In this document: positions 2,758 to 44,590 of the stretch, in pieces
Layout: each line of letters begins with the position of its first letter
How positions within the stretch are numbered: position 1 is the first letter of the stretch
From: an archaeon
Lineage (GTDB): Archaea > B1Sed10-29 > WALL01
Assembly (NCBI GenBank): GCA_042584585.1
Contig: JBHOSQ010000008.1
Location: 1-50,521 of the forward strand
Reading direction: 5' to 3'
Length of the DNA stretch: 50,521 nt
Program-made: the position numbers and the translations under genes
Notes under the pieces: model-generated
The model's database searches: none
The model's input: only the letters and a program-made list of their open reading frames with translations
What the model was told of the DNA's origin: nothing

Positions 2758-2815
2758 GCCTATCGCTGGGCCTTGTGCCCCGCCTTAGTCTACCGCGCCA
2801 GCTGAGGTTTCGGCT
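2758..2815 (+). repeat. Modular palindromic element E2 (tRNA-Arg trailer)
   Basis: GCCTAT..GGGCCTTGTGCCC..TTAGTCTACCGCGCC-AGCTGAGGTTTCGGCT; aligns with 44248-44335 and 44504-44590. Confidence 0.8.
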
Positions 2816-2839
2816 GAAACCCGGCGGGCTAGTTGAGGC

Positions 2840-2918
2840 AGAGACGGGAATGAGCCCGTCTCTGGGGGTGCCAATTTGCACCCCTCAAGCCTAACGTGCC
2901 AGCTTAGTTCAAGCTGCT
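2840..2918 (+). repeat. Modular palindromic element E3
   Basis: AGAGACGGG/CCCGTCTCT hairpin, GGGGTGC/GCACCCC hairpin, AAGCCTAACGTGCC-AGCTTAGTTCAAGCT; closely parallels 10425-10483. Confidence 0.88.
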
Positions 2919-9913: not shown

Positions 9914-9965
9914 CTCAATTCACTGCTGCCTTTTTAAAAAGAAGTGGATAAAAGAATCAAAGCAT

Positions 9966-10077
9966 CCCCGCTTAGCATAGCCCGGTAATGCGGCCGGCTG
10001 TAGATGGATTTGGAGGCAGGGCCTTCGTACCAGCCGCCACCGGCAGATCCCCCGTTCAAATCGGGGAGCGGGGACCA
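9966..10077 (+). tRNA. tRNA-Tyr(GTA), 35-nt intron at 37/38 (10004-10038), encoded CCA
   Basis: C1-G72 acceptor CCCCGCT/AGCGGGG; GCCGG-CTGTAG[intron]A-CCGGC. Confidence 0.92.
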
Positions 10078-10121: not shown

Positions 10122-10195
10122 GCCCCTGTAGTGTAGTTGGTTTATCATCTGGGATTGTCGATCCCAGGACTCGGGTTCGAATCCCGGCGGGGGCG
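10122..10195 (+). tRNA. tRNA-Asp(GTC)
   Basis: GCCCCTG/CGGGGGC acceptor; TGGGA-TTGTCGA-TCCCA. Confidence 0.95.
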
Positions 10196-10220
10196 CTCTA
10201 GTTTTCTAGGAGATGTATGC

Positions 10221-10418
10221 ATGAAACGGTTCAGGTCAAAAGGCGGTTTTTTCTTGATGTTGACTGGGGCAGTCGCGCTGTTGAGCGGGTCGCAGCTGTT
10301 GATTGGCAACTTGATTCAAGTGGAAGATATGCTGCAGGCGTTTGGCGGACTCTTTGTGTTCATGTTCGGCGTGATGCTGTTTTACTACGGGAGCATTCTT
10401 CTCGGTGGAGAAGAATAA
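10221..10418 (+). CDS. Small 2-TM membrane protein
   Basis: AGGAG RBS, ATG 10221, two hydrophobic segments. Confidence 0.7.
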   Translation: MKRFRSKGGFFLMLTGAVALLSGSQLLIGNLIQVEDMLQAFGGLFVFMFGVMLFYYGSILLGGEE

Positions 10419-10523
10419 CAATTTGTCTCTGGGGGATGCCAACTGGCATCCCCCAAGCCTAACGTGCCAGCTGAGTTTCAGCTGTTTTATTACGGGAGCA
10501 TTCTTCTCGGTGGAGAAGATAAC
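10376..10523 (+). mobile_element. Palindromic element E5 (10425-10483) flanked by 44/43-bp direct repeats (10376-10419, 10481-10523)
   Basis: GCTGTTTTAYTACGGGAGCATTCTTCTCGGTGGAGAAGA(A)TAAC on both sides of GTCTCT-GGGGGATGCCA/TGGCATCCCCC-AAGCCTAACGTGCC-AGCTGAGTTTCAGCT; mobility is inferred. Confidence 0.7.
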
Positions 10524-10551
10524 TAGTTTTTTATACCCCTAATTCGTTTTC

Positions 10552-10809
10552 TTGGGTGTGGAGATTGACTACGACATTGTCAAGACCGTGCGGGAGCTAG
10601 AGAAAGCAGGCCATTCTGACGAGACCATCGAGGAAAAGCTCGGGGAACTGGGGTACTCTGAATCAGAAATACTCGAAATAATGCGGTTATCCAGCGGAGT
10701 TGACGCCACAGAAGGCCAGAACAAAGCGAAAATGGCGCTGATGGCGCTCGGCGGCGGATTCGTGGCCCTCGTGGTTTTGATGGCGGTATACGCCCTGATA
10801 TTCGCCTGA
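10552..10809 (+). CDS. Small tail-anchored membrane protein
   Basis: Helical N-domain (AGHSDETIEEKLGELGYS) and C-terminal TM; TTTTATA upstream. Confidence 0.75.
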   Translation: MGVEIDYDIVKTVRELEKAGHSDETIEEKLGELGYSESEILEIMRLSSGVDATEGQNKAKMALMALGGGFVALVVLMAVYALIFA

Positions 10810-23854: not shown

Positions 23855-23917
23855 GCCCTCGTTTTCTGCAAGGTTTTTAAGGCATAGTGCGAACAATAGG
23901 TGTCGCTGGAACATTAG

Positions 23918-24004
23918 GTCTCTGGGAATCGCAGATTCCCTGTGGCCCGACGTTGACCCCAAGTCAACGTCCAGACGCAACGTGCCAGCTTAGTTTAAGC
24001 TGCT
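23918..24004 (+). repeat. Modular palindromic element E6, abutting tRNA-Ser 5' end
   Basis: GTCTCT-GGGAATC/GATTCCC-GACGTTGAC/GTCAACGTC-AACGTGCC-AGCTTAGTTTAAGCT-GCT. Confidence 0.9.
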
Positions 24005-24088
24005 GCTGAGGTGGCAGAATCCGGTTATCGCGCTGGTCTCGAAAACCAGTGTCCTCTGGACTTGCAGGTTCAAATCCTGCCCTCAGCG
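24005..24088 (+). tRNA. tRNA-Ser(CGA)
   Basis: GCTGAGG/CCTCAGC acceptor, G73; CTGGT-CTCGAAA-ACCAG; long variable arm. Confidence 0.95.
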
Positions 24089-43642: not shown

Positions 43643-44238
43643 CAGAGCATTATTACTCAAAGAAGCAGACCAGCAAATTGGTCAAGCGCGAGTGGGCTGT
43701 TGAAGTCAACGGCCGGCGCCTCGTGTTCGAAACGGCGAGCGGCACGTTTTCCCCTCGGAAGCTGGACATCGGGACCGCAGCGATGATTAAGTACATGGCG
43801 CCTCCAGAGGACGGAAAAGTTTTGGACCTTGGGTGCGGCAACGGAGTGATTGGAATAGTGGTGGCTGCCGAAAACCCGCGTCTGGAAGTGGTTTTGAGCG
43901 ACGTGAATTCCCGCGCGGTGATGAAGAGCAAGGCTAACATCCGGCGGAACAAGCTCAAGAACGCGAAAGTGGTCCAGAGCGACTTGTTCGCAAAGCTCAC
44001 TGGCGGGTTTGACTGTATACTGTCGAATCCCCCGATCTCGGCCGGGAGGAAAGTGGTGTTTGCGATGGTCGAGGAAAGCTTTGGCCATCTCAATCTCGGT
44101 GGCTCTTTGCAGATGGTGGCGCGGAAGACGAAGGGCGGCGAAATGCTGGCGAAAGAGATGGAGCGCGTTTTCGGGAACGTGGAGGACATTGGCCGCAAAT
44201 CAGGGTTTCATGTTTATAAATCAGTAAAGGCAGAATAG
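43639..44238 (+). CDS. Class I SAM-dependent methyltransferase (MTS/RsmC-like)
   Basis: HYYS, GTFS..LDIGT, LDLGCGNG, SNPP. Confidence 0.9.
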   Translation: MTEHYYSKKQTSKLVKREWAVEVNGRRLVFETASGTFSPRKLDIGTAAMIKYMAPPEDGKVLDLGCGNGVIGIVVAAENPRLEVVLSDVNSRAVMKSKANIRRNKLKNAKVVQSDLFAKLTGGFDCILSNPPISAGRKVVFAMVEESFGHLNLGGSLQMVARKTKGGEMLAKEMERVFGNVEDIGRKSGFHVYKSVKAE

Positions 44239-44247
44239 GCGCGGCAT

Positions 44248-44335
44248 GCCTATTTGCGGGAGCTCGGCTCCCGCTTTAGTCTAACGTGCCATAACGTGAA
44301 TCCCGCAGGATTCTCGTTTGAGCTGAGTTTCAGCT
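44248..44335 (+). repeat. Modular palindromic element E7, abutting tRNA-Ser 5' end
   Basis: GCCTAT-GCGGGAGC/GCTCCCGC-TTAGTCTAACGTGCC-[AACGTGAATCC/GGATTCTCGTT]-AGCTGAGTTTCAGCT. Confidence 0.88.
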
Positions 44336-44419
44336 GCTGGGGTGGCGCAATCCGGTACCGCGCAAGCCTGGAAAGCTTGTTTCCTTCGGGATATGTGAGT
44401 TCAAATCTCACCCCCAGCG
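44336..44419 (+). tRNA. tRNA-Ser(GGA)
   Basis: GCTGGGG/CCCCAGC acceptor, G73; CAAGC-CTGGAAA-GCTTG; variable arm. Confidence 0.95.
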
Positions 44420-44503
44420 CTCAACCCTTTTTCTGCTAGAGCCACACTCGTTTGCCCACTCGGTGGCTCATCGGCGGAAAAGCGTTGATGGAAAATGGCG
44501 TCT

Positions 44504-44590
44504 GTCTCTGGGGGCCTTGTGCCCCCCGTTGCCCGACGTTGACCCAAGTCAACGTCCAGTCCCGACGTGCCAGCTTAGTTCAAGCTGCTG
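44504..44590 (+). repeat. Modular palindromic element E8 (full three-hairpin copy)
   Basis: GTCTCT-GGGGGC/GCCCCC-GACGTTGAC/GTCAACGTC-CAGTCCCGACGTGCC-AGCTTAGTTCAAGCT-GCTG. Confidence 0.92.

Follow-up and report, generated by a model that had tools for sequence, protein, structure and literature searches.

Integrative elements and genomic islands insert at the ends of tRNA or protein-coding genes and supply a replacement end, with attL and attR sites formed by a tyrosine integrase, and they can build tandem arrays at a single tRNA. Such target-restoring elements are kilobases long, encode their integrase and use one crossover site. Long, variable target duplications are also known for insertion sequences (IS) such as IS1634, and short, abundant, hairpin-forming intergenic repeats are familiar as repetitive extragenic palindromic sequences and bacterial interspersed mosaic elements (REP/BIME), miniature transposable elements with inverted repeats (MITEs) and palindromes derived from IS200/IS605. 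IS1630 generates target duplications of 19-26 bp (PMC2853133). In the same paper, Furuta et al. (2010) described 'insertion with long target duplication' for restriction-modification genes in bacteria; their screen retained no archaeal case. Integron attC arrays and clusters of attC sites lacking an integrase (CALINs) have been described in archaea (Ghaly et al. 2022, PMC9668308). Here we describe E5, a 62-nt element that lies between two long copies of the end of a small gene in contig C8 of an archaeal metagenome-assembled genome (MAG) of 1.02 Mb in 32 contigs. We refer to this stretch of 50,521 nt in its entirety as the window and to its genome as G000. G000 is an Iainarchaeum-like DPANN MAG, and its nearest named relatives by RpoB are MAGs of Diapherotrites and Micrarchaeota. 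We propose, with moderate confidence, that E5 is the smallest, cargo-less form of a genus-specific set of hairpin cassettes that restore the gene ends at which they insert. We compared G000 with two congeners (G001 and G002), all three genomes being MAGs with 84-89% completeness (G000, 84%), and with three other genera of the same family (G003-G005; 85-98% complete).

E5 occupies positions 10423..10484 of the window, on the + strand like every other feature for which coordinates are given here. A covariance model of the family, R1, built from 19 copies, scores it at 73.7 bits over exactly this interval (10423-10484). From 5′ to 3′, the element consists of a 5′ box (TTGTCTCT); hairpin 1 (10430..10455), with an 11-bp stem (10430-10440 / 10445-10455) and a 4-nt loop; a single-stranded linker (AAGCCTAACGTGCC; 10456..10467), which is the most conserved block of the family and continues into the foot of hairpin 2; and hairpin 2 (10468..10484; CAGCTGA GTT TCAGCTG), whose 7-bp stem sets the 3′ end of the element. 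The two-hairpin fold is more stable than expected, with z = -5.5 as DNA and -4.6 as RNA. Rfam has no family for the element, the nearest being a chance match to Sphinx_2 (E = 3). Hairpin 2 together with TTTTATT (10468-10494) scores as a site resembling an intrinsic terminator; since the T run belongs to the displaced gene-end copy described below, this match may be fortuitous.

The gene interrupted by E5 is a small hydrophobic open reading frame (ORF) of 65 aa (10221..10418; ATG at 10221, TAA at 10416-10418), the tail of which is the duplicated segment. The upstream copy, which lies in the gene, is 44 nt long (10376..10419) and comprises the last 14 codons, the stop codon and one further base. 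It is separated from the start of the element model by a 3-nt filler, AAT (10420..10422). Comparing 10376-10414 with 10481-10519 without gaps, 38 of 39 positions match, the single substitution being C10385 versus T10490. With a 1-nt indel (GAAGAATAAC versus GAAGATAAC), the repeat extends to 10419 and 10523, giving copies of 44 and 43 nt that are identical at 42 of 43 positions. We thus recovered the direct repeat 10376-10419 / 10481-10523 that a first-pass annotation of the window had described as bracketing the element, with its one substitution and one 1-nt indel. Positions 10481-10484 (GCTG) form the 3′ arm of hairpin 2, which places the element end at 10484 rather than at 10480; and, since the upstream copy also begins with GCTG, the E5 junction is ambiguous by 4 nt. 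The displaced downstream copy (10485..10526) therefore contains 39 nt of the repeat, or 43 nt with the shared GCTG, and its own stop codon, TAG (10524-10526). It keeps the reading frame, encoding the same peptide as the upstream copy through ...GGE, then D N, then the stop. A TATA-like box (TTTTTTATAC; 10527..10536), which may be the promoter of the next gene, follows directly, and this gene, a conserved one of 85 aa (10552..10809; likely start GTG at 10558), has an orthologue in G002 that is preceded by a similar box. Similarity to G002 resumes at 10525. The displaced copy is probably the original end of the small gene.

We compared the flanks of E5 with 1056 non-cognate flank pairs. The E5 flanks align with a score of 37.5, against a mean of 6.6 and a 99th percentile of 12.2 in this null set; two of the 1056 pairs reach the E5 score, probably by sharing repeated flanks. 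A chance origin of the repeat is excluded. We also considered the template and variable repeats of a diversity-generating retroelement and rejected them: the substituted base is not an adenine, the repeat is short, and no reverse transcriptase was found.

A further possibility is that strain variants, or the repeated module, were misjoined during assembly. In favour of this, the sequences come from MAGs throughout, the module is a repeat of 60 nt, and the best-matching sequencing runs (five, all seawater or marine) share only 0.05-0.10 of sampled words with the window. Contigs of relatives from four of these five runs included none that spans the whole stretch and no clean empty allele. One independent contig from a seawater metagenome contains the tRNA-Asp gene and a portion of the small gene, followed by 149 letters that do not align (the corresponding stretch of the window has 154) and by 10459-10535, interrupted by small deletions; judged by this spacing rather than by the letters of the contig, it fits a gene-element-copy layout in a relative. 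In one relative's contig, the displaced copy has lost 13 nt through four small deletions. Moreover, the two copies at E5 differ and so are not one collapsed sequence, the layout recurs at many loci in three independent assemblies, and the junction always falls at the same base of the element. We regard an assembly artefact as the least credible explanation of all those considered here.

E5 belongs to a repeated family. Its core motif occurs 30 times in G000 at up to five mismatches, and R1 matches 36 sites in G000, 6 in G001 and 53 in G002, with no match in the genomes of the three other genera. A degenerate 26-mer covering the linker and hairpin 2 was found in only two MAG records among 185,579 species genomes, titled Candidatus Iainarchaeum and Nanobdellati archaeon, and in no viral contig. 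The family is genus-specific. Across 68 aligned copies, 94.6% of pair cells are paired, and there are 142 compensatory cells versus 45 in shuffles, a number reached by none of 500 shuffles; structures slid by 1-3 columns leave at most 50% of cells paired. In hairpin 1, the stem sequence varies among copies while pairing is kept, and five of five scored pairs have changed on both sides. In hairpin 2, pair 96/115 is AU in 46 copies and GC in 19, pair 97/114 is GC in 49 and CG in 12, and pair 100/111 is GC in 34, UA in 20 and CG in 8. The two arms of hairpin 2 covary accordingly: CGCCT 5′ arms are followed by GGCG in 9/9 cases, and other arms by GCTG in 21/21. The GCT(G/A) that the first-pass annotation had noted after E3, E6, E7 and E8 is thus the 3′ arm of the element's own terminal hairpin and not a target motif. 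Ten cells at one pair of hairpin 2 are U-G and would be mismatches if read on the opposite strand, a hint that the strand of the window is the strand that folds.

To catalogue flank duplications and 3′ junctions, we examined 33 of the 36 R1 matches in G000 and 49 of the 59 in G001 and G002, leaving out three and ten, respectively, that are partial or weak. A flank repeat was found at p < 0.04 for nine of the 33 copies in G000, and in seven of these nine the downstream copy begins -4 to +1 nt from the element end; one of the seven (C6:16848) is AT-rich, promoter-like and weak. In G001 and G002, 18 of 49 copies have a flank repeat at the same threshold, and the downstream copy begins -4 to +2 nt from the element end in 10 of the 18, one of which reflects similarity between two elements. 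At the 13 junctions kept, the copies measure 11-57 nt, 0-20 nt of filler separates the upstream copy from the model start, and the downstream copy begins 0-2 nt past hairpin 2. Hence, the length of the copy varies and the 3′ end of the element is fixed, which speaks for this end being recognised. Other copies, too, have long flanking duplications, and E5 is a discrete insertion of a repeated and evidently mobile family; that the element is mobile had been suggested in the first-pass annotation.

The same annotation had proposed a junction microhomology, and the 4-nt GCTG overlap at E5 is real. As a rule for the family, the proposal had to be dropped: an offset-based count of 9/13 was replaced by an explicit count, in which an overlap of at least 1 nt is seen at only 7/13 junctions (binomial P = 0.06). 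This bears on microhomology-mediated template switching, in which a nascent strand would move to a hairpin module and back upstream with no mobile machinery at all. Overlaps of 4 nt at E5 and 3 nt at one other junction, the filler bases at the 5′ junction, the lack of any enzyme in the searches made and the presence of the same layout around unrelated hairpin inserts in G001 would suit such a process. Against this, the overlap is not significant over the 13 junctions, template switching leaves the synonymous divergence of the copies (see below) unexplained, and it would not be expected to stack gene-carrying cassettes in order beside an intact gene. We consider it improbable.

In the cases that we read through, the duplicated segment is a gene end. 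At the end of the RNase Z gene in G002, there are three copies of the last 15 codons and the stop codon, with two elements between them and a period of 113 nt. At the start of a gene encoding a 147-aa protein in G001, there are three copies of the first 15 codons, again with two elements between them, and a period of 110 nt. Both sites are plain and uninterrupted in G000, where G001 and G002 carry inserts. In G002, an element begins right after the discriminator base of tRNA-Asp (L002 ~1100-1400), and the same end is bare in the window (tRNA-Asp(GTC), 10122..10196). The tRNA-Gly end is filled in all three genomes, with one insert in G000, two stacked in G002 and one in G001, the last being an unrelated hairpin insert with a 17-nt copy of the tRNA end behind it. 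Thus, the orthologous empty sites that the first-pass annotation had called for exist for insertions in sister genomes (RNase Z, the 147-aa gene, tRNA-Asp), and none was found for the gene interrupted by E5: the syntenic region of G002 has tRNA-Asp and the downstream gene without the small ORF, G001 has a different upstream gene, and one scan of metagenome contigs yielded only a relative of 33% identity. In two seawater runs, contigs match tRNA-Pro(CGG) without a difference and then continue with an element-like start (TGTCTCTGG...), where the window (9915-9916) has no element; this contrast may be a filled/empty polymorphism or may come from a more distant relative.

Larger cassettes stack at the same kinds of site. 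Downstream of tRNA-Thr in G002, the 3′ 12-mer of this tRNA recurs 10 times within 20 kb, and these copies delimit single-gene cassettes; three of them abut hairpin 2, and one precedes a gene for a 389-aa tyrosine integrase. From cassette to cassette, the copied tRNA-Thr end varies between 12 and 25 nt. Cassettes hold whole genes with their promoters, in either orientation. A 396-aa ORF in a G002 cassette, which we had considered as a second integrase, is an AAA_14/DUF4143 ATPase. We also noted that contig C6 of G000 (64.6 kb) has a GC content of 0.50 versus ~0.55 elsewhere, and that it is a cassette stack, with 13 of the 30 occurrences of the core motif and nine start regions of a single nuclease gene (MPTWSHSRISTYESCPL...). 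In G001, the RNase Z and tRNA-Gly ends are likewise duplicated around unrelated hairpin inserts of ~75-95 nt (L088, L191).

The copies at some of these loci have diverged, and the pattern of divergence is informative about where they came from. On C6, the eight displaced nuclease starts differ from the intact start at 47 codons, and the amino acid is kept at 37 of these, including TCC/AGC switches for serine and CGC/AGA switches for arginine. Copies 1 and 2 of the RNase Z end differ at six codons, all six synonymous, and the old and new copies of the 147-aa gene start likewise differ at six codons, all synonymous. These are counts of changed codons, which we used in place of Nei-Gojobori counts; the latter (pS 0.46 versus pN 0.17 on C6) were set aside because they score TCC/AGC switches as non-synonymous and include a divergent tail. 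Neutral drift after duplication in place would give mostly amino-acid-changing differences; hence, the displaced pieces diverged inside working genes. The identity to the native RNase Z end of G000 is 11/16 codons for the copy abutting the downstream gene and 7/16 for the copy in use, a difference that, with so few sites, is not significant on its own. The simplest reading of these sequences is that many cassettes carry in a gene-end version of their own, the copy behind hairpin 2 being the native one. Alternatively, a duplication made in place could have been followed by homologous recombination with a diverged allele that replaced the working gene.

These counts also bear on transposition of the 62-nt module alone, in which a wide, variable staggered cut would be filled in to give an in-place duplication of 11-57 nt, as with IS1630 or IS1634 or in 'insertion with long target duplication'. 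The near identity of the E5 copies would suit such an event, as would the two other junctions with identical copies (14/14 and 16/16), and bacteria offer precedents for long variable duplications with no visible mobile gene (described in PMC2853133). However, the mainly synonymous differences at three loci (37 versus 10, 6 versus 0 and 6 versus 0 codons) are unlike neutral decay, the element lacks terminal inverted repeats, and only its 3′ end is fixed, the 5′ side varying from 0-20 nt of filler to whole genes. Searches of the three genomes of the genus found no DDE_Tnp_1 above its cut-off, nor any Y1, IS110-type or serine enzyme. We consider staggered-cut transposition unlikely, and for the E5 duplication we favour a replacement gene end over a classical target-site duplication. 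At E5 itself, the copies are too alike (42/43) for import and in-place duplication to be told apart.

Profile searches of the three genomes of the genus, which at 84-89% completeness fall short of proving absence, gave no match to RVT_1, for which control genomes were positive, or to Cas_Cas1, Y1_Tnp, DEDD_Tnp_IS110 or Resolvase, and nothing over the cut-off for DDE_Tnp_1, the one DDE family searched. Phage_integrase is represented by one gene in G002, which lies inside a cassette, and by a fragment in G001. PF07282, the Pfam model of the TnpB C-terminal region (Cas12f1-like_TNB), is over the cut-off in G002 only. The ends of the element (CTGTCTCTGGG... and ...GTTTCAGCTG) do not repeat each other in inverted form, and inverted repeats occur only within each hairpin. 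The family thus differs from each of several known classes: flank copies of 11-57 nt are not the short, fixed-length duplications of MITEs and DDE-type elements; flank duplications are present and Y1_Tnp was not found, in contrast to IS200/IS605-derived elements (palindrome-associated transposable elements, PATE); and the Cas_Cas1 of Casposon-type elements was not found.

The RVT_1 result concerns the suggestion in the first-pass annotation that the mechanism may involve target priming, read here as an RNA-mediated element similar to short interspersed nuclear elements (SINEs) that inserts by target-primed reverse transcription. In its favour, the element is polar with a structured 3′ end; the duplications vary in length; and the G-U pairs, which are A-C on the other strand, suggest a single folding strand. 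However, RVT_1 gave no match in the three genomes, the GCT(G) that was to serve as the priming site lies within the element, and cassettes carrying a gene and its promoter in either orientation are ill-suited to being RNA copies of a small transcript. Target-primed reverse transcription is not supported, and we consider it highly improbable.

We propose a mechanism that would accommodate the observed anatomy, fixed 3′ junction, variable duplication length, sister empty sites, stacking and synonymous divergence at other loci, and for which we infer the enzyme and the intermediate of joining. The inserted unit would consist, from 5′ to 3′, of a copy of the terminus of the target gene (44 nt here), either 0-20 nt of filler or at least one gene, and the 62-nt two-hairpin module. 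At E5, this unit would have been joined into the small gene, with its own copy of the gene end completing the reading frame. The original end (10485-10526) would have been pushed downstream, where it begins precisely at hairpin 2's 3′ foot and continues to abut the putative promoter of the next gene. The module would fold as single-stranded DNA and mark the fixed end of a DNA intermediate, and a trans-acting recombinase, or host recombination using the gene-end copy as homology, could join this intermediate beside the gene end. The substrate of joining might be folded single-stranded DNA, or a DNA end protected by the hairpin beside a homologous anchor. If only insertions that spare the gene survive selection, this would explain why the observed duplications span a stop codon, a start codon or the 3′ end of a tRNA. 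The donor of E5 may have been a near-identical strain or the same chromosome.

Several points weigh against this mechanism. A duplication in place suits E5 equally well, given its one substitution and one indel. No joining enzyme was identified, and G000 (84% complete) has no Phage_integrase match at all. A unit of 105 nt is very small for a double-stranded circular intermediate. Selection to keep the tail of a small ORFan is assumed. The genomes are, without exception, MAGs. Twenty-four of the 33 G000 copies have no detectable flank repeat; either these repeats have decayed, or many copies arrive by another route. Finally, the unrelated hairpin inserts of G001 suggest that the insertion process may serve several module families and be independent of the E5-type module.

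The surroundings of E5 are rich in tRNA genes, with rpoH and rpoB following just downstream. The 65-aa ORF is an ORFan, with no homologue besides itself among 5.8 billion proteins in a protein search and no Pfam family matched. It has four substitutions in contigs of relatives, which we read as two synonymous and two conservative. Upstream of tRNA-Asp, at 9966-10074 (+), we noted an intron-containing tRNA with a 38-nt insert in the anticodon loop and CCA directly after the match. It was missed by ARAGORN and by a whole-window Rfam scan at the gathering threshold, and scores 47.9 bits in a local scan; its loop sequence suggests the anticodon GTA (Tyr).

Six other family copies in the window illustrate the range of contexts. 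One (2760..2816) lies just behind tRNA-Arg(CCG) (2680-2753) and is followed by a 13-nt copy of the tRNA 3′ end (2817-2829); another (2856..2916) precedes the promoter of the next gene, with no flank repeat found. A copy cut by the contig start (1..54) retains a middle hairpin and hairpin 2. A copy with an extra middle hairpin (23916..24002) ends 2 nt before tRNA-Ser(CGA) and is itself preceded by a TATA-like box. In the copy at 44250..44336, a mini-hairpin insert of ~30 nt splits the linker from hairpin 2, and the last base is the first base of tRNA-Ser(GGA); a three-hairpin copy (44502..44587) lies downstream of this tRNA. At two tRNA-Ser genes (23870-24005 and 44230-44336), an element therefore separates a TATA-like box from the start of the tRNA. 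Should this box act as the promoter, transcripts would begin with the element as a long 5′ leader, to be cleaved off by RNase P. The module can be a target itself, with small hairpin units (CCTGGCGAAT..., ATAACGTGAATCCCGCAGG...) nested between linker and hairpin 2: there is one such unit in the window (44294-44320), and G002 has ~150 nt of tandem units (L002 ~1210-1370). At two loci where an element lies antisense before a gene (L078 ~1980-2160 in G001, and upstream of the 147-aa gene in G002), the 5′ box reads ...GAGGCAGGTG 6-9 nt ahead of the new start codon, and the displaced old start remains beside the old promoter. In sequence, this box resembles a Shine-Dalgarno sequence.

DPANN genomes are tiny and tightly packed, with few recognisable mobile elements, and how they gain genes is an open question. 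A full-text literature search, which did not cover supplements, retrieved no description of such mini-cassettes in archaea. We tentatively raise the possibility that the elements described here represent a new class of archaeal mobile DNA: cassettes without a recombinase, in which a two-hairpin module of ~60 nt, folding as single-stranded DNA and forming the only constant part, is combined with a gene-end copy that serves as an address, and which could move across strains and species into the matching gene end or, with a newly acquired address, into another gene end, without damage to the gene. E5 would then be address and module with no cargo. A family of miniature cassettes that rebuild the gene and tRNA ends at which they insert would be a route of gene flow that standard annotation misses, with the larger cassettes carrying single genes; it would account for the puzzling duplicated gene termini in these genomes; and the fixed hairpin junction would be a concrete substrate with which to look for the joining enzyme or host pathway.

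Among known elements, REP/BIME, MITEs and IS200/IS605-derived elements resemble E5 in being short, abundant, hairpin-forming and intergenic. They differ in that their duplications are either short and fixed, with inverted ends, or lacking altogether, and no Y1 was found here. IS1630 and IS1634 share the long, variable direct repeats, but encode a DDE transposase and have inverted ends, neither of which was found here. The attC consensus of integrons has the ends RYYYAAC and GTTRRRY; the linker motif GCCTAAC of E5 fits the first, and the element has no GTTRRRY partner. As with the attC sites and CALINs covered in PMC9668308, single-gene cassettes are delimited by a structured site of ~60 nt, arrays are extended at a single place, many of them with no integrase nearby, and strand-specific folding is plausible. 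In contrast to attC as presented there, a single long imperfect hairpin whose ends pair, the module consists of two separate hairpins and a conserved linker; and unlike in integrons, the target is duplicated, no IntI was found, and many gene ends rather than one attI are used. The cases in PMC2853133 likewise involve long, variable duplications of over 30 bp, with no transposase or mobile gene, that often overlap the 3′ end of a gene, and they were recognised by comparing filled and empty sites. E5 has a 44/43-nt duplication and no mobile gene, but an empty site was found for sister insertions and not for its own gene. The published cases differ in that they come from bacteria, mostly naturally competent ones, carry kilobases of restriction-modification cargo and have no conserved hairpin module at a fixed junction. 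Target-restoring integrative elements differ from E5 in several respects: a cassette may comprise only ~105 nt and no gene, G000 yielded no integrase, one module family uses at least 10 different targets, and the copied segment varies from 11 to 57 nt, even within one tRNA, which does not suit a single fixed crossover site. The resemblance lies in the layout. As in those elements, the insertion site is a gene terminus whose new end comes from the element, the old one persisting as a direct repeat on the far side, and inserts stack beside the intact gene; and one of the cassettes at tRNA-Thr in G002 carries a tyrosine integrase.

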